Of a DNA stretch of 64,000 nt, positions 4,890 to 62,827 are shown piece by piece. A program made the translations under genes and the position numbers. The stretch covers positions 3,984 through 67,983 of the forward strand of contig DASWFI010000007.1 of assembly GCA_036394315.1 (NCBI GenBank). The letters are read 5' to 3'. The notes below the pieces were generated by a model that did no database searches, had not been told where the DNA came from, and saw nothing but the letters and a program-made list of their open reading frames with translations. Position 1 is the first letter of the stretch. The number at the start of each line of letters is the position of its first letter. This DNA is from Patescibacteria group bacterium. Lineage in GTDB: Bacteria > Patescibacteriota > Doudnabacteria > UBA920 > O2-02-FULL-48-8.

Positions 4890-5477
4890 TTACTCCGCTC
4901 CGACTACGAACCGTGAAAATCTACGAACTTGGATGTTTTCGCCCAGTTTCGCCACTCTTTCAGCGATCAAGTCTTTGACTTTTTTCTCCGGCTCGCGCAC
5001 GTAAGGCTGGTCCAGCAGACAAACCTGTTCGTAATATTTTTCTAATTTGCCGGTGAGAATCTGCTCCTGCATATTTGCCGGTTTGCCTTTGATCTGCTCA
5101 GCGTAAATCTGTTTTTCGTTATCTATGGCATTCTGCGGCACTTCCTCGCGCGAGACGTATAAAGGCGAGGCCGCGGCTACGTGCAGAGCAATTTCCTGGG
5201 CCAATGCCTGAAAATCTTCATTTCTGGCCACAAAGTCAGTTTCACAATTAAGCTCCAGCAGTACACCCACTTTGCCGCCGGCGTGAATGTAGGAAGTGAC
5301 GATTCCCTCTTTCGTGGTCCTACTAGATTTTTTGGCAAGTGAAGCATGACCTTTTTTGCGTAAAATGGTTATGGCTTCATGAAAATCCTTTGCTTCTTGC
5401 AAAGCTTTCTTTGCATCCATCATTCCCGCGCCCGTAACATCTCGAAGTTTCTTAATATCTTCTGTTGTAATTTGCAT
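4890..5477 (-). CDS. tsf: Elongation factor Ts
   Basis: MQITTEDIKKLRDVTGAGMMDAKKAL... UBA-like N-terminus typical of EF-Ts, immediately downstream of rpsB. Confidence 0.9.
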   Translation of the reverse strand: MQITTEDIKKLRDVTGAGMMDAKKALQEAKDFHEAITILRKKGHASLAKKSSRTTKEGIVTSYIHAGGKVGVLLELNCETDFVARNEDFQALAQEIALHVAAASPLYVSREEVPQNAIDNEKQIYAEQIKGKPANMQEQILTGKLEKYYEQVCLLDQPYVREPEKKVKDLIAERVAKLGENIQVRRFSRFVVGAE

Positions 5478-5501: not shown

Positions 5502-6233
5502 CTATTTGGCTACTGCCGCGCCCTCAGTTTGAGCCATGATCGTTTGAGCCATATTATTGCGGCCCTCGTTGATCGCATCCGCCATGACCGAAGTCATGTA
5601 GCTTATCACCTTGATCGCATCATCGTTAGATGGAATCATATAGTCGACGTTGGTCGGATCCGAGTTTGTATCCACGAGACCGATCACTTTGACTTTTGAC
5701 TGGCGGGCTTCTTCCACCGGAATGTGATCATATTTAGTGTCGAGCACGAAAATTGCTTCAGGCAACTTTTTCATATCCTTGATTCCGGAAAAGAAAGTTT
5801 TCATCTTTTCCACTTCACGCGCGATCATCAACTGCTCTTTCTTGGTATATTTTTTGATCTCCCCGCTTTCGATCATCTTTTCCATCTTTTCCATCTTCTT
5901 GATGGTTCTTTGAATGGTACGGAAATTAGTGAAAGTCCCACCCAGCCAGCGTGTGACCACATAAGGCATGTTACAGGACTCGGCAGCTTTGCGCACTTCT
6001 TCTTTTGCCTGTCTTTTGGTTCCGACAAATAAAACCGTTCCGCCTCGAGCAACTGTTTCTTTGGCAAAGTTCAAAGCTTCAGTCAGCTTCTTGCGAGTTT
6101 TTTCCAAATCCAAAATATGGATATTGTTGCGCTGCGTGTATATATAAGATGCCATTTTAGGATTCCACAAGGAAGTCTTGTGGCCAAAATGCACGCCAGC
6201 CTTAAGCATCTCCATCAAATTGATGGTTTTCAT
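5502..6233 (-). CDS. rpsB: 30S ribosomal protein S2
   Basis: MLKAGVHFGHKTSLWNPKMASYIY...; conserved rpsB-tsf gene order. Confidence 0.95.
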   Translation of the reverse strand: MKTINLMEMLKAGVHFGHKTSLWNPKMASYIYTQRNNIHILDLEKTRKKLTEALNFAKETVARGGTVLFVGTKRQAKEEVRKAAESCNMPYVVTRWLGGTFTNFRTIQRTIKKMEKMEKMIESGEIKKYTKKEQLMIAREVEKMKTFFSGIKDMKKLPEAIFVLDTKYDHIPVEEARQSKVKVIGLVDTNSDPTNVDYMIPSNDDAIKVISYMTSVMADAINEGRNNMAQTIMAQTEGAAVAK

Positions 6234-6396
6234 AAATTATTGATCCTTTATACTTCTGCTCCCGTCATCTGTTTTAGGAATCTCGAGGTTCATTGTCTTG
6301 ATCCTCGAAACAAGGCCTAAACACATCAGGTGAGCATGTATGATTAATAGCTCATGGATTCTAGCATATAAAAGTGCTGGTGGCAAGAGCAGGATT

Positions 6397-6452
6397 TGTC
6401 TACATTTAAACGCGACATTTGAAAAATGTTGTCGGAATTTGACGCGAAGGAG
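6397..6452. repeat. Conserved ~56 nt intergenic element, copy A (upstream of the rpsB promoter); copy B is at 10247-10302
   Basis: gtctacatttaaacgcgacatttgaaaaatgttgtcggaatttgacgcgaaggag versus gtcagcagttaccgcgacacttggaaaaatttagtcagaatttgacgcaaacgag. About 80% identity by hand alignment; shared core cgcgaca.ttg.aaaaat.t.gtc.gaatttgacgc.aa.gag. Confidence 0.6.
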
Positions 6453-6552
6453 TAAGCCTGCAGCCCAGGGGAAATTTGCCGCTGTCCGAGCGACTAAAAA
6501 TCGGCTTTGATTTGTCCATGTCGCGAGTCCGGCAAATTTCCGACTTTTTTTG

Positions 6553-6580
6553 CGCTACTTTTCTTCTAGAAGAAAAGTAG
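6553..6580. promoter_or_regulatory. Perfect 13 bp inverted repeat GCTACTTTTCTTC-tag-GAAGAAAAGTAGC; a homologous hairpin sits at 10405-10432
   Basis: Perfect palindrome. The same GCTACTTTT...AAAAGTAGC-type hairpin recurs in the other r-protein upstream region with one mismatch. Confidence 0.5.
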
Positions 6581-6615
6581 CAAATAAAAAAGCCTTGCCG
6601 GTTTGCCCGGAAAGG
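6581..6615 (-). terminator. Rho-independent terminator of the upstream minus-strand gene
   Basis: On the minus strand: GCCTTTCCGGGcaaaCCGGCAAGGC followed by TTTTTTATTT. Confidence 0.65.
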
Positions 6616-6619
6616 CTTA

Positions 6620-7089
6620 TTACTGAATCCCGCCGTAGCCAAAGAAGAGTTTTCGCACATCCGGCGGTAGCCGTTTGGCGGGTTCGATACAGTTCCTCAC
6701 GAAGATATTCGGATGTGATTTCTGTCCCTCGAGAGGAGGTATAAACATTCCATTTTTCATCTTCTTCTCACTAAAAACGTGTGGAGACTGACGTCTTCCA
6801 TTGATGTAGATGACAGTATTGGAACTGGTATCACCACGCTGTTCCGATGCGTTCAGTTGAAGGCCTTTGCGATCTTTCAGAACGAACACACTGCAGCCTG
6901 GAATTGAGTAGTACGGTCTTTCAAAGATCTTGAGTAATTCTTCACTCCTCAGATCCTCGACTTTCCACTCCTGTGCCTGTGTTTCGACCACGCGCACGTT
7001 TGTCGGCGCCCTCGGAGGATTCGGCTTCCGCGTCTGCTCACCGGTCAGGGCCAGAACTGCCACGAGAACGATCAACACATGAGTCATGA
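6620..7089 (-). CDS. Small secreted hypothetical protein with a signal peptide (start chosen at MTHVLIV..)
   Basis: The track ORF is 6620-7129. The ATG at 7087-7089 is preceded by GAGGTG and followed by a hydrophobic signal sequence MTHVLIVLVAVLALTG. Confidence 0.5.
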
Positions 7090-7225
7090 TTTCACCTCTT
7101 TTTGCGAAGCTGGTTTCGTCGGATGACAAGGATGCGTCGGATGATCAACGATAGAAAAACAATTGCAATGGCTACGATTTGCACACATCCTCCTTCCCTT
7201 TGCTAACAACCAATAATATCCTGTC

Positions 7226-9538: not shown

Positions 9539-10214
9539 TAGCTGTAGCAGTCTCTTCAGGTTTGACCACGCCTTCCACAGCAGCCACATCTTCTTTGATT
9601 TCAGCATTTAGCGCGTTAATTTCTTCTTCTGATCGAGGGGCAGCCACAGTGACCATAACTTCATCAGCTGGAGTCAAAATTACCACCTTGTCGTCATGAG
9701 GAAGACTAGAAACGCGGATCGCATCTTCGAAAGTATTAAGCAGAGAAATATCAATTTCATAGCTTGGCGGGATATCTCCTGGCAAACATTCCACTTCAAC
9801 TTCAGATAAATTTTTAACTAAAGTGCCGCCCAAAGCTTTCACAGCCTGTGATTCTCCGACGAAATGAACCGGCACATGGACCTTTAATTTCTCAGTCATG
9901 TTCACGGCATAAAAATCCACATGGATAGGACGGCCATGAAGGTAATGATGCTGAACTTCGTGAATCAGTACCTGTTGGGTTTTACCGTCTACAACGAGAT
10001 TGATCAGGGTGCTTTCGCCAGCGCTCTTAAATGCCTTGGCAAAATCCCGTTCTGAAATCTCGATCTGCTTATTTTCTACGTTGTGTCCATACAAAACAGC
10101 CGGCAGTTTACCTGCGGTTCGTAAGGATTTGACTCGTTTGCCCAAAACTTCTCGTTTTGTTCCTGTAATTGCAATTTTTTCCATAGCCGACATATAGTAG
10201 CACTTTTCAGCCAA
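9486..10214 (-). CDS. rplY: 50S ribosomal protein L25 / general stress protein Ctc; true start probably the MEKIAITG codon near 10184
   Basis: MEKIAITGTKREVLGKRVKSLRTAGKLPAVLYG, then a Ctc-type C-terminal extension rich in E/K/T/A. A TTGACC-17-TACTAT promoter lies directly upstream. Confidence 0.85.
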   Translation of the reverse strand: MAEKCYYMSAMEKIAITGTKREVLGKRVKSLRTAGKLPAVLYGHNVENKQIEISERDFAKAFKSAGESTLINLVVDGKTQQVLIHEVQHHYLHGRPIHVDFYAVNMTEKLKVHVPVHFVGESQAVKALGGTLVKNLSEVEVECLPGDIPPSYEIDISLLNTFEDAIRVSSLPHDDKVVILTPADEVMVTVAAPRSEEEINALNAEIKEDVAAVEGVVKPEETATATTAPTDDQKKEKKEEKK

Positions 10215-10246
10215 CCGGTCAACTTGCTTGATTTACTTAAGGGTTA

Positions 10247-10302
10247 GTCAGCAGTTACCGCGACACTTGGAAAAATTTAGTCAGAATTTGACGCAAACGA
10301 GG
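10247..10302. repeat. Conserved ~56 nt intergenic element, copy B (upstream of the rplY promoter)
   Basis: See copy A at 6397-6452. Confidence 0.6.
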
Positions 10303-10314
10303 CATAAGGGTAAA

Positions 10315-10350
10315 CAAAAATCGCGCCGTCGATTAGGCGTCGCGATTTTT
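10315..10350. terminator. Bidirectional rho-independent terminator
   Basis: aaaaATCGCGCCGTCGattagGCGTCGCGATttttt: a GC-rich stem flanked by A and T tracts. Confidence 0.65.
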
Positions 10351-10436
10351 GGTACCGAGTGAGCTATAAATTCTGGTAAATTTTCCCGTGTCGCCAGTTT
10401 TTGACGCTACTTTTTTGCTGTCAAAAAAATAGCAAA

Positions 10437-10796
10437 TTATTTCTTAAGTGCTTGTTTAAAGTCTCCGTCAAAGCTTCGCAGAAACTCGTGAGTAGCCAAG
10501 ACTTCGTCAGAAGTAATGGGGCTGCTGTTTTTAAATTTATTCGTATCCTGCGAGGTAAGATCTGTAACCATGCCAATCGAAAAAATTTCCGGACCATCTA
10601 TGGCAATCGAGAACACTACTGAGCTCTTGCATCGCTCGCAATCAGTGTGCACCAGCAAACTCCGACCATTCAGAGGTTTGTCCTCACCGGAATCGATAAT
10701 TTTGGTCTGCTCAGCACTATATTTTTGTCCACAAACAGGACACTTCAGTATATAGGCCAACCATTGAATTATTTTGTTAAAATCAAATTTTGGCAT
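10437..10796 (-). CDS. Hypothetical Cys-rich protein (possible zinc ribbon CPVC...C..C)
   Basis: 119 aa with CPVCGQ...DCERC; no family recognised. Confidence 0.45.
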   Translation of the reverse strand: MPKFDFNKIIQWLAYILKCPVCGQKYSAEQTKIIDSGEDKPLNGRSLLVHTDCERCKSSVVFSIAIDGPEIFSIGMVTDLTSQDTNKFKNSSPITSDEVLATHEFLRSFDGDFKQALKK

Positions 10797-16389: not shown

Positions 16390-16632
16390 ATGGCTGAATT
16401 AACTAAAGAATATCTAGATCAAAACCTCCAAAACCTTGCGACCAAGGAAGACCTTAAAAACCTTGCGACCAAGGAAGACCTTAAAGATGCCGGTGAAGAA
16501 TTAGCACGCCTTGTTAACGACGGATTTCAAGCACAACAAGAATTCTTAATTGAAAAACTTGACGTACGAGATCGTATGGCTGAACTTGAAAAAGACATGG
16601 TTCGTATCAAAGAAGCTTTGCATATCAAATAA
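16390..16632 (+). CDS. Small coiled-coil hypothetical protein containing a perfect 27 nt tandem duplication (LATKEDLKN x2)
   Basis: 80 aa heptad-like sequence. Repeat units at 16432-16458 and 16459-16485 are identical. A 22-codon micro-ORF (16337-16402) with a perfect GAGGAGG SD overlaps its start. Confidence 0.4.
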   Translation: MAELTKEYLDQNLQNLATKEDLKNLATKEDLKDAGEELARLVNDGFQAQQEFLIEKLDVRDRMAELEKDMVRIKEALHIK

Positions 16633-20437: not shown

Positions 20438-21898
20438 TCATTCATTAGAATTTTTCAATTCTTTCTTAAGTAACTCATTTATTTTTTGTGGATTCCCTTT
20501 GCCTTTCAGCTCTTTCATAGTCTGGCCGACGAGAAAGCCAAAAGACTTTTCGCCTTTTGTTTTTGCATCCTCGACTCCCTTAGGATTTGCAGCTATTACT
20601 TTCTTCACCGCTTCTAAAATTACACTTTCGTCCGAAACCTGATGCAAACCAAGCTCGTCCAAAATATTGGATGGATCTTCTCCAGTCACAAACATTTTCG
20701 CAAACACGTCTTTGGCCGCTAAGTTAGAAACTTTCCCCTCCCCGATCAGTTTGATCAGCTCGGCGAAACTCTCAGCGGTAACTTTTGATTGTTCGGGCAA
20801 TAAATTTTTCTCATTGATCGCGGCCAGAAACGGACCCAAAATCCAGCCTGCGACCATGGAACCTCGTTTTTGATCTGATTTAGTCCATTCCGCCAATTCA
20901 CTCATAACCTGCTCAAAATAGACTGAAAGCTCTTTGTAAGACACCAAGGTCTGCGATTCTTTTTCGTTCAACCCATATTCGTCCATGAACCGCGCCTTTC
21001 GTACTTTTGGCAATTCCGGCAATTGTTTTCGCAATTCCTCCAGCCATCCTTTCGTAAAATGCATGACGGGCAGATCCGGTTCCGGGAAATATCGGTAATC
21101 CTGGGATTCTTCTTTTGATCGCTGCGAGACGGTGATTGATTTATCATCGACCCAGCCCCGGGTTTCTTTGTCAGGAATTTTTCCTTCGTCCAAAAGTTCG
21201 GACTGGCGCGTAATTTCAAACTCGATCGCATTCGCCACGGCTCGAAAAGAATTCATATTTTTAACCTCCACCTTGTATGGTGGGAATCCTGTTTCGCCTT
21301 TTTTGCGCAAACTGATGTTCGCATCACAGCGCAAATGACCTTTTTCCATATCCGCATCTGACACGCCTAAATAGCGCATAATATTCTGTAATTCTTGTAG
21401 ATACTGCTTCGCTTCTTCCGAAGATCTGATGTCCGGTTCACTGACAATTTCCAGTAATGGCGTGCCGGCGCGATTCAGATCAACCAAACTAAAACCCTTC
21501 GCGTGAACCAACTTGCCCGCGTCTTCTTCCAGATGTGCCCTTGTAATTCCGATTTTTCTCACTTCACCGCCGATCACGACTTCCATCACCCCTTTGCCGT
21601 TGATGGGGTGGTCGAACTGCGAGATCTGATAGCCTTTCGGCAAATCGGGATAAAAATAATTTTTCCGGTCAAATTTCGAATATTCGGCAATTTCGCAATT
21701 CAATGCCAAACCAACCATGACGGATTTAAGCACTGCTTCGCGATTGATCACAGGCAAGGTTCCTGGCTGGCCAGTGCAGACCTCGCAAATATGCACGTTT
21801 GGCACCTGGCTTTCGGCATTTTTGCTCGAGCAAAACATTTTGCTCTGAGTTTTTAGCTGGACATGGACTTCAAGTCCTATAACTGGTTCGTAGGTCAT
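20438..21898 (-). CDS. gatB: Asp/Glu-tRNA(Asn/Gln) amidotransferase subunit B
   Basis: MTYEPVIGLEVHVQL... GatB/GatE N-terminus and a C-terminal GatB-YqeY domain. Confidence 0.95.
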   Translation of the reverse strand: MTYEPVIGLEVHVQLKTQSKMFCSSKNAESQVPNVHICEVCTGQPGTLPVINREAVLKSVMVGLALNCEIAEYSKFDRKNYFYPDLPKGYQISQFDHPINGKGVMEVVIGGEVRKIGITRAHLEEDAGKLVHAKGFSLVDLNRAGTPLLEIVSEPDIRSSEEAKQYLQELQNIMRYLGVSDADMEKGHLRCDANISLRKKGETGFPPYKVEVKNMNSFRAVANAIEFEITRQSELLDEGKIPDKETRGWVDDKSITVSQRSKEESQDYRYFPEPDLPVMHFTKGWLEELRKQLPELPKVRKARFMDEYGLNEKESQTLVSYKELSVYFEQVMSELAEWTKSDQKRGSMVAGWILGPFLAAINEKNLLPEQSKVTAESFAELIKLIGEGKVSNLAAKDVFAKMFVTGEDPSNILDELGLHQVSDESVILEAVKKVIAANPKGVEDAKTKGEKSFGFLVGQTMKELKGKGNPQKINELLKKELKNSNE

Positions 21899-22320
21899 GG
21901 ATTTGTGCTACGGATCCTGCTCGGCGATGTGGTTTGAGGAGAACTGTTTATTCCCTCTAAGGATTTAAGATTAAAATTTACTAAATCAGGATTAATCTCG
22001 TTTAAAAGCAAATAAGCACAGAAGAGAATCACAACTCCGATCAAGGCGCCTGTGATATATTCTTTTCCTTTGGTAGCTTGTTCTGCATTGCCAGCCGCAG
22101 TCATAAGATAATATCCACCCAACACCATCATCAGAAGAGCGAGCAATACTGCAACACCTAGCGACCAGACATAAATTTGGTTAATGCATCGCGGCAAAGC
22201 GCTGGCTTTATCTGCACTCCCCTGCACTGCGGACACGGTGCACGGATTAGTTTGAGCTATTGCTAACAGAGGAGCAAAGGCCATAGTAAAAATAAAAATA
22301 AATAATATTAATTTTTTCAT
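21895..22320 (-). CDS. Small secreted or membrane protein (signal peptide plus 2 TM; TrbC/VirB2-like topology) inserted between gatA and gatB
   Basis: MKKLILFIFIFTMAFAPLLAIAQ signal sequence, then two hydrophobic helices; 141 aa. Confidence 0.45.
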   Translation of the reverse strand: MKKLILFIFIFTMAFAPLLAIAQTNPCTVSAVQGSADKASALPRCINQIYVWSLGVAVLLALLMMVLGGYYLMTAAGNAEQATKGKEYITGALIGVVILFCAYLLLNEINPDLVNFNLKSLEGINSSPQTTSPSRIRSTNP

Positions 22321-37846: not shown

Positions 37847-39676
37847 CTATTCGTTGTTATTACGTTGCGCCTGCAGTTGTTTTTTTGCTTCCTCGATTTC
37901 CAGAGCGCGTTTGGGGTCAGTGGTAATAATCTGATCTTCCATATATGAAGCTATAATCTTGATCGCGACATGCTTGAGTCCAGCGAAGAAAATTCCTTCA
38001 CCCACATCAGATTCCAGGAGCAGATACTTCTCCCCTTCGGTGAGGTGGAAGGTTTCGGTGATTAGATCAATCGAAGTTGGCGACTGCTTGAGCAACATTT
38101 GAATCGAAGAATTATTTACGATCGGCGCCCCGTACGGCGATTTCAAAAAATCACCGACATCCTGAGTAATTGTAGTTACCCCCAGATAATATTTTCTCGC
38201 ACGTTTGGCGATATTCGATAAGAATAAAGCTGAGTCGTCGCGCTGCATCATCCACCAAGCTTCATCGATCACTAAAATCCGCTTCTTCAGAGACGAGCGT
38301 ACCACGTTCCAGATGTAACTCAGCGTAACATAGATCGCAATCGGCCTCAGCTGATCTTCCAAATCCCGCACTGAAAATACCACCAACTGGTTATTTAAAT
38401 TAATATTGGTCCGCTGATTAAAAATCCCTGAGAAAGTTCCTTGAGTGTATTTGGTCAGGCGCTGCGCCAGACTCTCGCCACCCACCATCCCTCCTAAAAT
38501 TTCCACCAAATCCTGCATGATTGGCGGTTCGACATTGCTTAAATTGGAATTCGCGGTAATATCTTTTTTAGCGTAAGTTTCCCAGAGTGCCCGATCCATT
38601 ATGGATTCTTCAGTGGGATCCAGCTTACCTAACATCAAATTCATAAGTCCCAAAAGACTGACCACGGCAGCGCGTAAAATATCTTCGTTGGACTCCCCTT
38701 CGATCGCACGTGGCAGATCAAACGGATTGACCCTTGAATCGGAATTCAGCGAGATATTCAGAAAAGTCCCGCCTACAGCGTTGGAGAGATGCTGGTATTC
38801 GTTTTCCGGATCTATAACGATGACATCCGTGCCCAACATAAGAGAACGCAAAATTTCAAGCTTGACCGCATAACTTTTGCCGCTGCCCGATTTGGCAAAC
38901 ACCACGGAGTTGGCATTTTCCATCTGAAACCGGTCAAACAATATCAACCCATTATTGTGGCGGTTGATTCCATAGAGTATGCCGTCGTTGGAAGTAAGCT
39001 CTGAGGAAACAAAAGGAAAAGTCGTGGACAGAGGTTCCGTATTCATATTCGTGGCAATAGCCAGTTCGTCGTTCCCCAAAGGCAATGTGGAATTAAAACC
39101 TTGCTCCATCTGCAGTATGGCAGGCTTGGCCATGATCAGCTTGGAACCCAAAATTGATTCCAAAGTAGCTGAGGTCTGATCCAGTTCTTTTTGTTCGTTG
39201 GCGTAGATCGTGAAATACACTGAAAATCGGAAATATCTTTCAGTGCCCTGCTGCAATCTGTCCCGCAGGCCCTCGATATCCTGCAGGGCGGTCTCCATCA
39301 TCGGATCGCGGACGTTTCCTTTTTCCTGGCCCATGCGCATGGAAGATTCGACTTGTCCGACTTTATTTCGCAGTTTTTTCATTATCTCCTCAGTATCCAT
39401 TGGGTATATAAACATCGACATGTCCATGGGTACATCGAGACTAATGATCGGAGCCAGCCAGTCCACGGAAATAAACCGCGGATAAGAAAGGACGAAAAAT
39501 GTCCGGGCCAGTTTACCCGAAACTTCCACGGAATTTTGAGTAACGCGAAAAGCTGAAGGCGCGATCAAATCACGCAGAGTGTTCAATCCTTTTTTGTACT
39601 CACGCTCTTTTTCTACCAGCTGCCTTTGCAGCTCGCGTTGAGGATCCAATTGTTGATTTACCTTAAATAATGCCAT
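37847..39676 (-). CDS. VirB4/TrbE/TraC-family type IV secretion ATPase
   Basis: Walker A VVFAKSGSGKSY and Walker B RILVIDEAWWMM; size and motif spacing fit the VirB4 C-terminal ATPase domain. Confidence 0.8.
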   Translation of the reverse strand: MALFKVNQQLDPQRELQRQLVEKEREYKKGLNTLRDLIAPSAFRVTQNSVEVSGKLARTFFVLSYPRFISVDWLAPIISLDVPMDMSMFIYPMDTEEIMKKLRNKVGQVESSMRMGQEKGNVRDPMMETALQDIEGLRDRLQQGTERYFRFSVYFTIYANEQKELDQTSATLESILGSKLIMAKPAILQMEQGFNSTLPLGNDELAIATNMNTEPLSTTFPFVSSELTSNDGILYGINRHNNGLILFDRFQMENANSVVFAKSGSGKSYAVKLEILRSLMLGTDVIVIDPENEYQHLSNAVGGTFLNISLNSDSRVNPFDLPRAIEGESNEDILRAAVVSLLGLMNLMLGKLDPTEESIMDRALWETYAKKDITANSNLSNVEPPIMQDLVEILGGMVGGESLAQRLTKYTQGTFSGIFNQRTNINLNNQLVVFSVRDLEDQLRPIAIYVTLSYIWNVVRSSLKKRILVIDEAWWMMQRDDSALFLSNIAKRARKYYLGVTTITQDVGDFLKSPYGAPIVNNSSIQMLLKQSPTSIDLITETFHLTEGEKYLLLESDVGEGIFFAGLKHVAIKIIASYMEDQIITTDPKRALEIEEAKKQLQAQRNNNE

Positions 39677-39683
39677 AGCAATA

Positions 39684-40379
39684 TTATTCTCTAGCTATAT
39701 CGAGCTCGTCTATACTTTTAATTTTTATCGGAGATGCTGTATCCAGGTTGTAGCTGTTGTAAACTAGTTCTATCAATTCTTCGGTGTTAAGCGCGATAGT
39801 TTTTAATCCCATTTGAGCCAAGCCGGTGGTTACTTGATTGACTCTCTTAAGTAATTCTTCGCGCGCTTTTTCGAAATCCCGGTTTTTGATAGATATTTCC
39901 TTAGCGGGATTAAACAAATTGGTAAACTTTTCAAAAAATCCTTTTTTAACAGCGCCCGTGCCTAGAGGAATAATAACGTAAAAAGTTTTATTCATAATAC
40001 TGGCAAACTCAATCAGCTTCTCTATGTACTCGACATATTCCTGGGTCTGCATCCGGAGCAGTTCATTTGTCTGCTGCTGCATCACTCCCCGCAATTTATC
40101 CAAATAAGAATTAATATCTAGCTTCCTTGATTGCATTAAAATCTGAATGGAAAATTCCAGAGCATTCAGAAAATTTTGATAAGATCCGATGAGAGCATTT
40201 TGCTCCTCCGCGCTTTTAAGAGAAAAGTTGGTAGATGATACTGCCAACACCGCACGCAACGAACCATCTCGCAGGACCATCGTGGCTTCTTTGATCTCTT
40301 GAATATCCAAATACGCCTGCGTGGACGCAGTGGGTTTGTTGCCAGACATGGAGTTAGATTGCATTTCTTGCTTTGCCAT
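39684..40379 (-). CDS. Hypothetical protein immediately upstream of VirB4 (possibly a separately encoded VirB4 N-terminal domain)
   Basis: 231 aa soluble protein, 8 nt from the VirB4 start. VirB4 here is about 200 aa shorter than typical. Confidence 0.4.
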   Translation of the reverse strand: MAKQEMQSNSMSGNKPTASTQAYLDIQEIKEATMVLRDGSLRAVLAVSSTNFSLKSAEEQNALIGSYQNFLNALEFSIQILMQSRKLDINSYLDKLRGVMQQQTNELLRMQTQEYVEYIEKLIEFASIMNKTFYVIIPLGTGAVKKGFFEKFTNLFNPAKEISIKNRDFEKAREELLKRVNQVTTGLAQMGLKTIALNTEELIELVYNSYNLDTASPIKIKSIDELDIARE

Positions 40380-40822
40380 TATGATTTTTGTTCTAACAGC
40401 TTTTTTTCCTCTTCCGTTTTCTGGTCCAGGAGATAAGCCAGTTTTTTCAAACGGCTTTCGTTCGGTTCATCTAATTTATTCTTGGCCAAAACTATAGTTT
40501 CTGCTTTTTTTTCTGTCTTAAAAGACATGTTCACGCTGACATCCTCCCGCTTAAAAATCCTCACTTGGGGTCTTGATGTAAAAGCCACAAACACTCCAAT
40601 ATAACTGAAGAGTGGTCGGCCGTTAAATTTACCAAACGTAAGTCCTAACCCTAATAAGGAAGTAGGGATTGCAAAAAAGTAAAAGAAGATGGACAGCTTA
40701 AGCAGGGAGTAAAAAAACATGACTATGCCGCCGGTTGCTAGAATAATCAAAAACTGCTTTAAAGTCAGAGGGCCAATCAGTTTATCTTCGACTTCTGTGA
40801 ATTGTGGTACAGCGTATTGCAT
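40379..40822 (-). CDS. Small 2-TM membrane protein (VirB3/PrgI-like position and topology)
   Basis: 147 aa with two adjacent hydrophobic helices; translationally coupled to its neighbour. Confidence 0.45.
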   Translation of the reverse strand: MQYAVPQFTEVEDKLIGPLTLKQFLIILATGGIVMFFYSLLKLSIFFYFFAIPTSLLGLGLTFGKFNGRPLFSYIGVFVAFTSRPQVRIFKREDVSVNMSFKTEKKAETIVLAKNKLDEPNESRLKKLAYLLDQKTEEEKKLLEQKS

Positions 40823-54860: not shown

Positions 54861-55378
54861 ACTGGCCTTTCTAAAACATATTCGATAAATTTATTAATAT
54901 CAGTATGATTGGGATTTGGGTTGTGAGGAAATTTGAATCCCAAAGCGTCCAAAAGATCCAGAGAAAAACTATCCAGCAATCCGTAATCTACGGCAAAGTA
55001 ACTTGGTTTGTCTAAATTGATCAGAAATTCCTTCAGTAATAGAAATACTGTTTCATTTGGATGCTCATCCGCCGTCAATTTCAACATCAGCTCGGCAGCA
55101 TAGAATCCAATTGCGGTTTTCTGCAAATCTTCCCGCAAGCTTCCAAATTGCCGGATGCACTTGGCTCCAATCAAAACCGGCAATTGAGAACCAACAATAT
55201 CTATCTCTGACAACCCCAGATCCTGTACGGCGTAATTCAGCTTGCTTTTGGGCAGCCGGAGAGATTTTGCCAATACTCGCACCTTGCCTGCTTCTTGCGT
55301 CCATACAGTCAATATTTGATCGGCTTCCTTATAATTTTGTTTCTTTAGGATAACTCCGGTGAGTTTCTTATATTTCAT
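54842..55378 (-). CDS. recO: DNA repair protein RecO (short form: OB-fold N-domain plus helical domain)
   Basis: MKYKKLTGVILKKQNYKEADQILTVWTQEAGKVRVLAKSLR matches the RecO N-terminal OB fold. Confidence 0.7.
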   Translation of the reverse strand: MKYKKLTGVILKKQNYKEADQILTVWTQEAGKVRVLAKSLRLPKSKLNYAVQDLGLSEIDIVGSQLPVLIGAKCIRQFGSLREDLQKTAIGFYAAELMLKLTADEHPNETVFLLLKEFLINLDKPSYFAVDYGLLDSFSLDLLDALGFKFPHNPNPNHTDINKFIEYVLERPVWMIKF

Positions 55379-58300
55379 TTAGTCAACGCGATGTCCACAC
55401 TTTTGCCTTCAACTTCAAACTTTTCTCCCCCCGCTTCCTTAGAAATCTTATTGATATAGGTCTTTTTTGTGTCGAAAAGGTCAAAAGCGGCGATTAATTC
55501 GTCATCATCAGTATTATAAGATAAATTGACGATTTCCCCAACTTTTAAGCCGGATTTTTTCCGCAAATCCTGCACAGCGCGTTCCAGCTCCCGAGCCAAG
55601 CCTTCTTTTTTAAGCTCAGATGTTAGATTTAGATCAAATTCCAATTTATCGCCGAATTTCACCGTCTTTACATTCAATTCCTCAGCCAGAATATCAGTAT
55701 AATCTTTGCGAAGTTCGTTCTTGTCATTATATGTTACCGAGGCCAATGGTTGACGTAATTTTATATTCGCGGCTTTTCTAAGCCCATGACCCTGCTCAAC
55801 TAAGTTGCGCACCAATTCCATTTGCTCCAAAACTTCCTTTTGATCTTTGCTCAATTCTTTCTTTTCCGGCCACTTGGCTAAATGAACTGAAAGCACGGCC
55901 GGATTTTTATTCAGATTACTGTAAATTAATTCCGACATATAAGGTATTACCGGAGCTGAAACTTTAGCCATTACCAGAAGTGCATGACGCAAGCTGCCGA
56001 AGAAATGACTGTCCTTTCGTCCGCGACTTCTTCGCAAGTACCAAGTCGATAATTCATTTATATATTCCTCGATCGCTCTGGTGGCACGCACAGTATTGTA
56101 TCCATCCAATTCATCTGTAACGGTATTTACCAACTCCTGCGTCTTAGCAACAATCCAAAGATCCAGGACATTCGTCAAATCCGGTTTGTATCCTGCTGGC
56201 TTGGGTTCCCACCCTGCTTCATTGGCGTACGTGACGAAATAATTATATACGTTCCATAAAATCAAAATATTTTTTCTGTAAATCACACTTAATTCTCTTT
56301 CACTAAAATTCAGATTATCGGCATTCATCACTGGCGAGTTCATTAGATAAAATCTCATAGCATCTACGCCATACTTCCCCATGACTTCCCATGGATCGGG
56401 ATAATTATTTTTTGACTTACTCATCTTAGAACCATCTTCAGCCAAAATTGTTCCGGTGGTCACCACGCTTTGGAATGGTGCTTTGCCGAACAAATTATAT
56501 GATATGACATGCATGACATAAAACCACGCACGCGTTTGAGCGATGTATTCGGCTACGAATTGTGCTGGGAACCGGCTTTCGAAAACCTCTTTCTGGTCAA
56601 ACGGATAATGATATTCGGCAAACGGCATAGAGCCTGCTTCCACCCAAGAATCGAATATTTCTGGGGTTCTATGGGCATCCTTGCCACACTCTTTGCATTT
56701 CAAAACCACATCGTCAATATACGGTCGATGCAAATCTACAATCGAAACATTTATCTCGAAAACTTCCACATATTTCGGGTACGGTCTTTCAGACCCAAAG
56801 TGTCTCATTAAAACCAAAAGCGGATCTCCATGACCCACTACTAAAATCTTCTTACCTTCATATTTCTGATTAACTTCATTCACAAAATCAACCATTCGTT
56901 TTTGAACTTCTGCCCAGGTTTCTCCGCCCTTGGGTGCTTCTGTCCATAGATCGTGCTTATTTGCGAATTCATTCTGCCATTCTTTTTCCGATTTGCCCTC
57001 AAATTCACCGACGTTATATTCCCGCAGTCTCTCATCAGTCTTTATTTCCAACCCTATTTTTTTCGCCAATATTTCTGCCGTATGCCTTGTCCGTAAAAAA
57101 TCAGACGTGAAAATCAAATCTATGCCGAGCTCTTTAATCTGCCTGGCTAAATTTTCCGCTTGTGATAATCCTTCCTTTGACAAACCAAACCGATCTTTCT
57201 CAATGGAATTAGAAATAACATTCAAAACATTTTTTTCTGACTCCGCGTGCCGGACAAAATAAAAAGTATTTTTTTCCAAACCTAAATCTTTAATACTGCC
57301 GGCCACCGTGTTGTGTCCGTCTTCGCACTTCCAAACCGGGATCGGATTGCCCCAGTATCTATTTCGAGAAATATTCCAATCAGGAGCCGCTTCTACACTC
57401 TTTTGATACCGACCGTGCTTCAGATGTTCCGGATACCAGTTGATTTCTTTTTCGTTAGTTTCCAGGAGTCCTGATTTGATCTTTTGAATATTCATAAACC
57501 ATGCAGGAATGGCATTGTAGAAAAGCGTCGTGCCACAACGCCAGCAGTGCGGATACGAATGCTGGTGTTGTTGTTTGGCAAACATCAATCCCCTACTCTC
57601 CAAATCTTTCTTGATCAATTTTTCTGAATCTTTAAAATACATTCCTCGAATCAGCTCCGGAGCTAAGGTATTAAACTTTCCCTTTTCATCCAGCAGCGGA
57701 ACGACAGGCAAACCCACTTTCATTCCCAAATTATAGTCATCTTCTCCGTAGACAACAGCTGTGTGCACAATTCCAGTACCCTCTTCTGTATTTACAAAAT
57801 CTGCAGCGTAAACTTTAAAGGCCTTGTCAGATTGAACAGCTGGCACATCAAATAAAGGTTCATATTCAAGGCCAACCAAGTCGGAACCCTTATACTGCTC
57901 TTTTGTGCGATCGTCAATTTTAGTAGTATCCCCAAAGACAGAATTTACTCTATCTATTGCAATAATATAAAATTCATCGCCGACTTTTATTTTGAGATAG
58001 TGAATATCTTCTCCGACTGCCAAAGCCACGTTGCCTGGCAAAGTCCAGGGAGTGGTGGTCCAAGCTAATAAATAAGTATTTTCTTGGCCTTTGACTTTAA
58101 ACTTAACTGTCACTGCTTCTTCCGTCACTTCCTTATAACTATTATCCATGGCGACTTCAAAGTTGGAAATCGGTGTCTCACAACGCGGACAATACAATAA
58201 TACGCGACGGCCTTCGTAAACAAGTCCCTTGTCGTAAATTTGCTTGAACGCCCACCATACGGATTCCATGTAATCACGATCCATAGTTTTGTAAGAATCG

Positions 58301-58746
58301 TCAAACTCCACCCAGCGCGCAATCCGGCGGATGGTTTTTTTCCACTCATCAGCGAATTGCAAAACCATACTGCGACAAGTTTCATTGAACTTTTTAATTC
58401 CCAATTTTTCAATATCTTTTTTTCCGGAAATTCCAAGCTTGCGCTCGACTAACTCTTCTATCGGCAAGCCGTGGCAATCCCACCCCCAGCGCCGACGCAC
58501 ATAGCGCCCGTGCATAGTTTGATAACGGGGAAATAAATCTTTGACAGTGGAAGCTAAAATATGTCCGTAATGAGGCAAACCTGTGGCAAAGGGCGGGCCA
58601 TCGTAAAAAGTATACGGTTGGCCGTTTTTGGTTTGTTCTAGAGATTTCTCGAAAATCTGATTCTCTTCCCAAAACTTCAAAACCTCTTCCTCAAGTTTCG
58701 GAAAGTCTGGTTTTGGATCAATTGGTTTGAAAGGTTGTTTACTCAT
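55375..58746 (-). CDS. ileS: Isoleucyl-tRNA synthetase carrying an inserted histidine-phosphatase (PGAM-like) domain
   Basis: HIGH-class motif PHYGH, CP1 editing region, KMSKS (DGSKMSKSKNN) and the anticodon-binding region. The insert at aa ~494-668 carries FVRHAESEKN (RHG-type), ...IDLIFTSDFLRTRHTAEIL..., ERLREYNVGEFEG and VVGHGDPLL (GHG-type). Confidence 0.93.
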   Translation of the reverse strand: MSKQPFKPIDPKPDFPKLEEEVLKFWEENQIFEKSLEQTKNGQPYTFYDGPPFATGLPHYGHILASTVKDLFPRYQTMHGRYVRRRWGWDCHGLPIEELVERKLGISGKKDIEKLGIKKFNETCRSMVLQFADEWKKTIRRIARWVEFDDSYKTMDRDYMESVWWAFKQIYDKGLVYEGRRVLLYCPRCETPISNFEVAMDNSYKEVTEEAVTVKFKVKGQENTYLLAWTTTPWTLPGNVALAVGEDIHYLKIKVGDEFYIIAIDRVNSVFGDTTKIDDRTKEQYKGSDLVGLEYEPLFDVPAVQSDKAFKVYAADFVNTEEGTGIVHTAVVYGEDDYNLGMKVGLPVVPLLDEKGKFNTLAPELIRGMYFKDSEKLIKKDLESRGLMFAKQQHQHSYPHCWRCGTTLFYNAIPAWFMNIQKIKSGLLETNEKEINWYPEHLKHGRYQKSVEAAPDWNISRNRYWGNPIPVWKCEDGHNTVAGSIKDLGLEKNTFYFVRHAESEKNVLNVISNSIEKDRFGLSKEGLSQAENLARQIKELGIDLIFTSDFLRTRHTAEILAKKIGLEIKTDERLREYNVGEFEGKSEKEWQNEFANKHDLWTEAPKGGETWAEVQKRMVDFVNEVNQKYEGKKILVVGHGDPLLVLMRHFGSERPYPKYVEVFEINVSIVDLHRPYIDDVVLKCKECGKDAHRTPEIFDSWVEAGSMPFAEYHYPFDQKEVFESRFPAQFVAEYIAQTRAWFYVMHVISYNLFGKAPFQSVVTTGTILAEDGSKMSKSKNNYPDPWEVMGKYGVDAMRFYLMNSPVMNADNLNFSERELSVIYRKNILILWNVYNYFVTYANEAGWEPKPAGYKPDLTNVLDLWIVAKTQELVNTVTDELDGYNTVRATRAIEEYINELSTWYLRRSRGRKDSHFFGSLRHALLVMAKVSAPVIPYMSELIYSNLNKNPAVLSVHLAKWPEKKELSKDQKEVLEQMELVRNLVEQGHGLRKAANIKLRQPLASVTYNDKNELRKDYTDILAEELNVKTVKFGDKLEFDLNLTSELKKEGLARELERAVQDLRKKSGLKVGEIVNLSYNTDDDELIAAFDLFDTKKTYINKISKEAGGEKFEVEGKSVDIALTK
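56745..57270 (-). other. Histidine phosphatase / phosphoglycerate-mutase-like domain inserted within ileS
   Basis: All branch-1 histidine phosphatase motifs are present in order (RH(A/G)ES..N; LS..G..QA; ..SS/TSD.LRT..TA; E.L.E.N.G..EG; GHG). The insert is flanked by the IleRS segments GSIKDLGLEKN and VDLHRPYIDDV, which are normally separated by only ~25 aa. Confidence 0.75.
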
Positions 58747-61532: not shown

Positions 61533-61982
61533 ATGACTAGTCTTGCAAATAATCGAAAAGCGCTGCACAACTATTCCATCGAAGATCAGATCGAGGCGGG
61601 TTTGGTATTGGCAGGGCACGAAGTCAAAAGCATCAGAAACGGCCAGGCCAGTTTGGATGGAGCGTACGTCACGATCCGAAACGGCGAGGCTTTCTTGCGC
61701 AACGCTTACATCGGTAAATACAAGCAAGCAGCAAACCTGGAAGGTTACGATGAGTCCAGAGAACGGAAATTGTTATTGCACAAAAATGAACTATTGCGAC
61801 TTCAATCAAAGACCAAAGAAAAAGGTCTAACATTAGTCCCTTTGCAGATCTACACTTCCAAGCGGCGCCTTAAACTCAAAATTGGTCTCGGACGTGGAAA
61901 GAAACAATACGACAAACGCGAATCAATTAAGAAAAAAGAAACAAAAAGAAGTCTGGACAGAACTATCCGAACCAGAGTATAA
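61533..61982 (+). CDS. smpB: SsrA-binding protein
   Basis: ..KALHNYSIEDQIEAGLVLAGHEVKSIRNGQASLDGAYV.., the SmpB signature; tmRNA lies ~460 nt downstream. Confidence 0.9.
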   Translation: MTSLANNRKALHNYSIEDQIEAGLVLAGHEVKSIRNGQASLDGAYVTIRNGEAFLRNAYIGKYKQAANLEGYDESRERKLLLHKNELLRLQSKTKEKGLTLVPLQIYTSKRRLKLKIGLGRGKKQYDKRESIKKKETKRSLDRTIRTRV

Positions 61983-62446: not shown

Positions 62447-62827
62447 GGGGCTGAATTGATTCGACAGGTGTTCCTTCAAAATCACAGCAAGTCCGATTAG
62501 CCTAATCTCTCGGTTAAAAAGAAAAGGTAAATCATAAATGCCAAAAATTTGGTAAGCAGATTCGTGAATGCTTTTGCATTCTCACCTGCTATGGTTGCTG
62601 CTTAATTAAGTAACAACCCATCAGCCTTTCGGTGTTCTTCCGAAAGTACCTGGTGTTATATTAAGAACTTACTTTGATCGGTACTCGACGATCAAAAGGA
62701 CATTTAGAGCAACCTTAAACTGTTTTCGTTTCGCTTCTATAGTTTAAGATAAACAAGCGAAACTAAACTTGTAGAAGTGGCTTTGAAAAACTCTTGGACG
62801 GGAGTTCACTGCTCCCCAGCTCCACCA
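62447..62827 (+). ncRNA. ssrA: tmRNA (SsrA)
   Basis: 5' GGGGCUGAAUUGAUUCGACAGG matches the canonical GGGGCUGAUUCUGGAUUCGACGGG. 3' GGACGGGAGUUCACUGCUCCCCAGCUCCACCA matches E. coli GGACGCGGGUUCAACUCCCGCCAGCUCCACCA. The G3:U70 pair and A73 are present. A tag ORF ends ...SPAMVAA and is followed by UAA. Confidence 0.82.

Follow-up and report, generated by a model that had tools for sequence, protein, structure and literature searches.

Two copies of one repeat upstream of rpsB and rplY

In the 64,000-nt stretch of DNA analysed here (the window), similar blocks of non-coding sequence lie behind the promoters of two ribosomal-protein genes, rpsB and rplY, raising the question of whether they are a shared control element of ribosomal-protein transcription or members of a small dispersed repeat family. 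The genes around both blocks are all on the minus strand, and the relevant features are as follows.

4890-5477, minus strand: tsf
5502-6233, minus strand: rpsB
6358-6386, minus strand: rpsB promoter TTGCCA-17-TAGAAT, adjoining the repeat but outside it, present in relatives without the repeat
6592-6618, minus strand: intrinsic terminator of the upstream 169-aa gene
6620-7129, minus strand: 169-aa gene
9486 to about 10184, minus strand: rplY
10194-10222, minus strand: rplY promoter TTGACC-17-TACTAT, adjoining the repeat but outside it, present in relatives without the repeat
10437-10796, minus strand: 119-aa gene

The initial annotation had described two 56-nt blocks, about 80% identical, near 6.40 and 10.25 kb. 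Both are present, pairwise alignment of 6397-6452 with 10246-10301 giving 44 identical columns out of 57 (77%). The near-identical palindromes described beside each block were also confirmed, the first (6554-6581) being a perfect 14+14 inverted repeat and the second (10406-10433) carrying one mismatch, and both sigma-70-like promoters were recovered by the promoter scan and are kept in relatives. A repeat search matched 6418-6452 with 10267-10301 (5' block, 83%) and 6546-6585 with 10398-10437 (palindrome block, 78%). Since the offset between the copies is nearly equal for the 5' block (3849 nt) and for the palindrome (3852 nt), the two delimit a single unit of about 175-195 nt; the blocks and palindromes of rpsB and rplY thus form one collinear repeat, not separate motifs. 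BLAST of copy 1 (upstream of rpsB) against the rest of the window returned copy 2 (upstream of rplY) as the sole match, with a 63-nt HSP (E 4.6e-7) and a collinear 40-nt HSP (E 8e-4), all the remaining matches being noise (E >= 0.1), and a covariance-model scan of the full window with filters off detected the two copies and no more. The 56-nt block therefore exists, but not as a stand-alone element: it is really the left arm of an inverted repeat of about 33 nt, whose right arm lies just before the palindrome, obvious in copy 2 (10260-10294 with 10363-10394) and largely deleted in copy 1.

Anatomy of the window copies

The inverted repeat forms a long imperfect hairpin, here termed P1, and the palindrome a short hairpin, P2. 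The parts of the two copies, with the matches of the covariance model (CM R1), are listed below.

6411-6585, plus strand: copy 1, degenerate unit (CM R1 match 6405-6595, 95 bits, E 3e-18)
6411-6445, plus strand: P1 left arm of copy 1, CGCGACATTTGAAAAATGTTGTCGGAATTTGACGC, the core of the 56-nt block
6470-6541, plus strand: apical module of copy 1, from folds and alignment, with an inner stem of GGAAATTTGCCG with CGGCAAATTTCC around CTGTCCGA...GCGAGTC
6554-6581, plus strand: P2 hairpin of copy 1, the perfect 28-nt palindrome GCTACTTTTCTTCT/AGAAGAAAAGTAGC, seen also in covariation
10259-10436, plus strand: copy 2, complete unit (CM R1 match 10253-10447, 157 bits, E 9e-32)
10260-10294, plus strand: P1 left arm of copy 2, GCGACAC TTG GAAAAATTTA G TCAGAATTTGACGC
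10295-10362, plus strand: variable apical insert of copy 2, with its own hairpin CAAAAATCGCG...CGCGATTTTTG
10363-10394, plus strand: P1 right arm of copy 2, GCTATAAATTCTGG TAAATTTTC CC GTGTCGC, complementary to the left arm
10406-10433, plus strand: P2 hairpin of copy 2, GCTACTTTTTTGCTGTCAAAAAAATAGC

Alignment to the copies found in two other contigs, L005 and L026 (see below), indicated that copy 1 is without about 40 nt of the P1 right arm, and that its type of apical module is also that of L005 and L026. The sequence ATGTCGCG at 6519-6526 was considered as the right arm of copy 1 and rejected, since in the same alignment it falls within the apical module, and the actual right arm is deleted. 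A T-run at 6545-6551 precedes P2 of copy 1. In copy 2 the linker between the P1 right arm and P2 is CAGTTTTTGAC, and P2 lies 3 nt from the stop codon (10437-10439) of the upstream 119-aa gene; fold z-scores of copy 2 were -4.9 and -7.2 in two folding analyses. The apical inserts of the two copies are unrelated to each other. For both copies, shuffled sequence folds much less well than either strand.

Orthologous sites in relatives are empty

The nearest named relatives by S2 protein are Doudnabacteria. The comparison covered the rpsB loci of six relatives (L002-L007, S2 identity 84-88%) and the gene coordinates of a 91% relative (P0003), and synteny is kept among relatives. Upstream of rpsB, L002, L005 and L006 present a terminator, 10-20 nt, the promoter TTGCCA/TTGTCA-17-TAGAAT and the same leader; upstream of rplY, L002, L003, L006 and L007 present merely 80-130 nt with the promoter kept; the unit is absent from all of these regions. 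In P0003 the intergenic lengths at the rpsB and rplY sites are too short to hold it. The terminator of the 169-aa gene, 10-20 nt from the rpsB -35 hexamer in relatives, is separated from it in the window by the repeat. With orthologous sites empty and promoters kept, the unit counts as an insertion when set against these genomes, and is younger than the promoters.

These observations bear directly on the proposal, made in the initial annotation, of a common transcription-factor site or UP-like element of ribosomal-protein promoters: the six relatives keep the orthologous rpsB and rplY promoters and do without the unit. Lack of the block in orthologous intergenic regions, the outcome named beforehand as speaking against a regulator, is indeed what was found.

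Between the upstream terminator and the rpsB promoter of L003, at 9683-9707, 19 nt of the P1 left arm survive on their own (AAATTTTTCCCGTGTCGCA), in the place held by copy 1 in the window; this remnant would fit either an old decayed insertion or repeated use of the site.

A separate observation concerns the start of rplY. On the minus strand, the -10 hexamer TACTAT ends just 9 nt before the likely start ATG (10182-10184), so that the mRNA is presumably leaderless or nearly so. The ATG chosen by the gene caller (10191-10193) lies directly downstream of the -10 hexamer, hence upstream of the likely transcription start.

Further copies in Doudnabacteria-like contigs

Seven copies are known altogether, the two of the window being the sole pair from one genome. 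The five others are at unrelated sites in other Doudnabacteria-like contigs (L005, L022, L023, L026 and L045), in agreement with the second option of the initial annotation, a small dispersed repeat family. The third full copy, retrieved with an nhmmer profile of the two window copies (E 1.9e-16), lies in L005, flanked by an MS-channel gene and an HTH_3 gene. A metagenome scan, based on a pattern of the 19 positions invariant in the first three copies, returned 29 loci, four of them with real copies: L022 (neighbours: an M50 peptidase gene and a 196-aa ORF), L023 (RseP and a 92-aa gene; same as L046 and L048, the host being also Doudnabacteria-like), L026 (a D-Ala carboxypeptidase-like gene) and L045 (Dus). 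Enrichment upstream of translation genes, expected of a regulator, holds for both window copies but for none of the five elsewhere, not one of which adjoins a ribosomal-protein gene and three of which lie between convergent genes with no promoter nearby. With copies scattered over unrelated sites, a role of the unit in controlling ribosomal-protein genes is not supported.

Other searches yielded no additional members. CM R1 detected no further copies in about 1.1 Mb of DNA of the fetched loci. Searching 185,579 species genomes, a collection that does not include the window's own genome, with the pattern GAATTTGACGC-N(95-125)-CGCTACTTTT gave 9 hits, all in unrelated phyla and nhmmer-negative, where about 8 are expected by chance; with only chance hits in this exact-pattern scan, the family is either rare or was missed by it. 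Scans of viral contigs with two patterns gave chance matches only, the model being positive solely for copies of L023, and a full copy had no BLAST match among plasmids or phages. Two candidates were rejected: L050, from the viral-contig scan, is coding sequence, and L032, with a 39-nt match to the 5' block, lies inside a 241-aa ORF and has neither right arm nor P2.

The L022 contig shows a further peculiarity. About 270 nt of the M50 peptidase 3' end are duplicated (1140-1410 and 2346-2612; 95% amino-acid identity), together with the terminator hairpin that follows, and the duplicates flank the repeat unit and the 196-aa ORF. This arrangement could derive from a cassette-like insertion by recombination or from an assembly chimera.

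A conserved two-hairpin fold

The family is a non-coding, structured repeat of 130-220 nt, made up of five parts on the window plus strand. First comes P1, whose two arms (about 33 nt each, of conserved sequence) pair as GCGACAC/GTGTCGC, followed by GAAAAATTTA/TAAATTTTTC, by a bulged G and lastly by TCGGAATTTGAAGC/GCTATAAATTCCGG. Within P1 sits the second part, an exchangeable apical insert of 0-90 nt, which forms its own hairpin whenever present; it is absent in L023, unrelated between some copies, and of one common module type in copy 1, L005 and L026. The third part is a linker, in which three variable bases (CAG in three copies) precede 3-7 consecutive T and a G; then comes P2, the short hairpin GCTACCTTTG...CAAAGGTAGC (palindrome GCTACTTTT...AAAAGTAGC), and finally a few A-rich bases close the unit.

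In the model-fitted alignment of the seven copies, 90.9% of cells are paired, with compensatory change in 6 pairs (11 cells); none of 500 shuffles reached the observed values, and slid partners gave 37-57% pairing. Compensatory changes occur in both hairpins, as in GTCGG/CCGG vs GTCAG/CTGG and GCTAC/GTAGC vs GCCAC/GTGGC, with G-C to A-U in P1c and T-A to C-G twice in P2. In L045 the outer stem is wholly replaced (CGGCC/GGCCG for GCGACAC/GTGTCGC) with pairing retained. The P1 rod bears, besides its invariant bulged G, two invariant wobble pairs.

As for the strand, G-U cells number 19 on the plus strand, 12 of which stem from two invariant positions, against 3 A-C cells, which would be G-U on the other strand; this tally favours the plus strand as the folded one. 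The minimum free energy of the plus strand was also the lower in all seven copies (z -4.6 to -9.6).

Position and orientation of the copies

In four copies a convergent gene has its stop codon 3-20 nt from the P2 end, and in three the P2 end is just past the terminator of the convergent gene, while the 5' end of the unit faces a divergent promoter in three copies and the terminator of a co-oriented gene in three others. Both window copies end 22-37 nt upstream of the -35 hexamers of the ribosomal-protein promoters, in the same orientation, and the L005 unit ends 18 nt from a putative -35. That P2 faces a gene 3' end in 7/7 copies was dropped as evidence of orientation: at convergent sites this is automatic, which leaves only the three co-directional sites as informative, and there the three copies share the same orientation.

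The folded strand is the C-rich strand at all six loci (6/6), a count confounded by gene orientation in the short contigs; an orientation bias relative to replication may underlie it. Over the whole window, the GC skew of the plus strand is negative.

No consistent target-site duplication was seen in the seven copies, either around P1 alone or around the whole unit, the boundaries being placed to a precision of a few nt, and no consistent terminal motif of the unit was found. The 5' flanks of six copies have no common motif. Promoter scans and inspection of the flanks likewise identified no consistent conserved promoter, whether within the unit or ahead of P1. P2 was considered as an intrinsic terminator and rejected: the T-run precedes it and A-rich sequence follows on both strands, and the scan makes no call. 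P1, followed by 3 nt and T3-7, would be at best a weak terminator.

The rpsB leader and other features of the window

The structured rpsB leader suggested in the initial annotation proved to be conserved: the 5' UTR (6234-6357, minus strand) is shared by seven relatives, with 11 covarying pairs. Its two-helix structure is 90% paired, 0/500 shuffles reach the observed values, and it has an invariant loop, AUCAAGACAAUGAA. It had no match in Rfam and is absent from the 20 leader candidates of PMC7247131. It is a plausible candidate for a new uS2 autoregulatory leader.

Some other features of the window were recorded. An isoleucyl-tRNA synthetase of 1123 aa (55375-58746, minus strand) has a His_Phos_1 (histidine-phosphatase) domain inserted at residues 495-651. 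A T4SS-pilin-like gene (21895-22320, minus strand) lies between gatB and gatA, and a VirB4/TraG-like ATPase gene and a PrgI-like gene are located at 37847-39676 and 40379-40822. Just downstream of dnaE, a 27-nt unit, AAAACCTCCAAAACCTTGCGACCAAGG, is repeated in tandem with 89% identity (16421-16474). The tmRNA gene (62447-62827, plus strand), with the unusual tag AKNLVSRFVNAFAFSPAMVAA, is directly downstream of smpB (61533-61982, plus strand).

Comparison with known repeats and structured RNAs

Neither copy gave a gathering-score match in Rfam 15 (including 6S RNA, ribosomal-protein leaders, ribozymes and HEARO), hits at E<=10 being only noise far below gathering scores, and our full-text literature searches yielded nothing published on small dispersed repeats, or on an RNA of this sort, in Patescibacteria.

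Several families of bacterial repeats offer partial parallels. REPIN and REP (BIME) elements are reportedly mobilised by RAYT transposases. Like them, the unit is a short non-coding intergenic repeat, with inverted halves that pair into a long hairpin maintained by compensatory change; both occur often between gene ends, vary in presence among relatives and are assumed to act as folded single strands. The CTAC...GTAG carried by P2 in 5/7 copies recalls the GTAG tetranucleotide of REP. Unlike in REPINs, the P1 arms are not palindromic REP units, the extra hairpin P2 stands outside the inverted repeat and the copy number is apparently low. No RAYT (Y1 HUH) gene was found in the 64-kb window.

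BOX elements of Streptococcus pneumoniae are present in more than 100 copies per genome. They resemble the unit in that outer modules pair (boxA with boxC, as the left with the right arm of P1) around an inner module (boxB, as the apical insert), and in being intergenic, about 100-200 nt long and without coding capacity; they differ in showing no sequence similarity to it and in lacking a counterpart of P2. Correia (NEMIS) elements of Neisseria possess 26-bp TIRs, a TA duplication, a promoter and IHF sites. With these, and with ERIC/IRU of enterobacteria, the unit shares the character of a 100-160-nt inverted-repeat element near genes, sometimes just upstream of promoters and thus mistakable for a regulatory site; unlike Correia elements, it is without duplication or internal promoter and has a second hairpin outside the repeat.

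The PATEs derived from IS200/IS605 are comparable for a hairpin-based, strand-specific structure with no TIR-type duplication and a possible preference for one orientation relative to the replication strand. In PATEs, however, small subterminal hairpins resembling each other mark the two ends, and insertion takes place 3' of a fixed tetra- or pentanucleotide, whereas here a P2-type hairpin is at the 3' end only and the 5' flanks of the six copies share no motif. Finally, the integron attC cores R'' (RYYYAAC) and R' (GTTRRRY) are at the ends of no copy on either strand, and the copies are solitary and beside housekeeping genes, which also argues against attC sites.

Nature of the repeat

The unit thus occupies differing, non-orthologous intergenic sites in different genomes, and the orthologous sites are empty. 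These two facts, together with the different apical modules and the decay of copy 1, fit independent insertions. Our preferred explanation, which we judge to have an even chance of being correct, is that the copies belong to a new family of non-autonomous, hairpin-forming, MITE/REPIN-like dispersed repeats in Candidatus Doudnabacteria. Independent insertions would by chance have come to rest between an upstream gene's end and promoters that rpsB and rplY already possessed. In this view the unit would behave as a non-autonomous mobile element comparable to MITEs and REPINs: an enzyme encoded elsewhere in the genome would act on it in trans, recognising its folded single strand as DNA during replication or possibly as RNA, and it would not regulate ribosomal-protein genes specifically. 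Against this explanation stand the small number of copies, just seven, with at most two seen per genome (in the 64-kb window), and the domain search of the same window, which detected no transposase, integrase or HUH gene. An autonomous partner did not turn up either, nor did a consistent target-site duplication, and the exact-pattern genome scan gave chance hits only. Moreover, arm conservation across species and compensatory changes would equally be expected of a functional RNA, and under random insertion we estimate that finding both window copies upstream of ribosomal-protein promoters is a coincidence of about 1%, given some 40 transcription units.

The copies might instead be a family of small structured RNA genes (sRNA/ncRNA) on the plus strand, with a rod-like P1 plus P2, acting in trans or binding a protein. 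The compensatory changes in both hairpins, the strong conservation of the arm sequences between species and the tolerance of G-U on one strand only (19 vs 3) are what such genes would show, and the T-run after P1 could aid termination. Still, we consider them unlikely: 12 of those 19 G-U cells come from the two invariant positions, flank inspection and scans revealed a conserved promoter upstream of P1 in no copy, and on the 5' side the window copies have the back of the rpsB and rplY promoters. Loss of the P1 right arm in copy 1, presence or absence among close relatives with a changing locus, free exchange of the apical part and the lack of an Rfam match point in the same direction.

A classical MITE of the TIR type, left by internal deletion of an insertion sequence, would also account for inverted arms of about 33 nt with conserved sequence and a variable interior, and for filled or empty sites, here at non-orthologous loci; the P1 arms would be the TIRs of a DDE transposase acting on dsDNA, their fixed left/right differences could be mere imperfections of the TIRs, and P2 would be accessory. 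We find this rather improbable, as the linker and P2 are conserved, and P2 covaries, outside the inverted repeat on one side; the outermost arm bases, which a transposase would be expected to need, are those replaced in L045 with pairing kept; and neither P1 alone nor the whole unit is flanked by a target-site duplication.

Quite improbable, in our opinion, is an intergenic or 3'-UTR RNA element read on the gene strand, serving as a stabiliser, processing site or insulator after the upstream gene. The closeness of the P2 end to stop codons or terminators and the common orientation of the three co-directional copies are in its favour, although at convergent sites the rule that P2 points to a 3' end is automatic. 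The gene strand, moreover, has no U-run after either hairpin, the conserved wobbles become A-C mismatches on it, and the three copies behind a canonical terminator would be little transcribed from it.

The shared upstream element of ribosomal-protein promoters, whether a pair of operators or UP-like, to which the position and orientation of the window copies and of the L005 unit relative to -35 hexamers had pointed, is hardly credible given the empty sites of the six relatives, the locations of the five other copies and the truncation of copy 1.

Rather than a passive MITE, the family might represent, within the Candidate Phyla Radiation, a new class of hairpin element specific to one strand: either an sRNA, whose conserved protein-binding rod would be P1 with its invariant bulged G and two invariant wobble pairs, or a ssDNA element mobilised by a mechanism so far unrecognised and coupled to the replication strand, the latter being conceivable as the folded strand is the C-rich strand at all loci. 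We put this new class forward as a speculative proposal, with the chances against it.

As a caution, two similar blocks before two ribosomal-protein genes need not signal a regulon. If a conserved, structured repeat comes and goes between close relatives, even the tiny, streamlined genomes of Patescibacteria host small mobile or selfish DNA, and the repeat could serve as a marker of strain-level variation.
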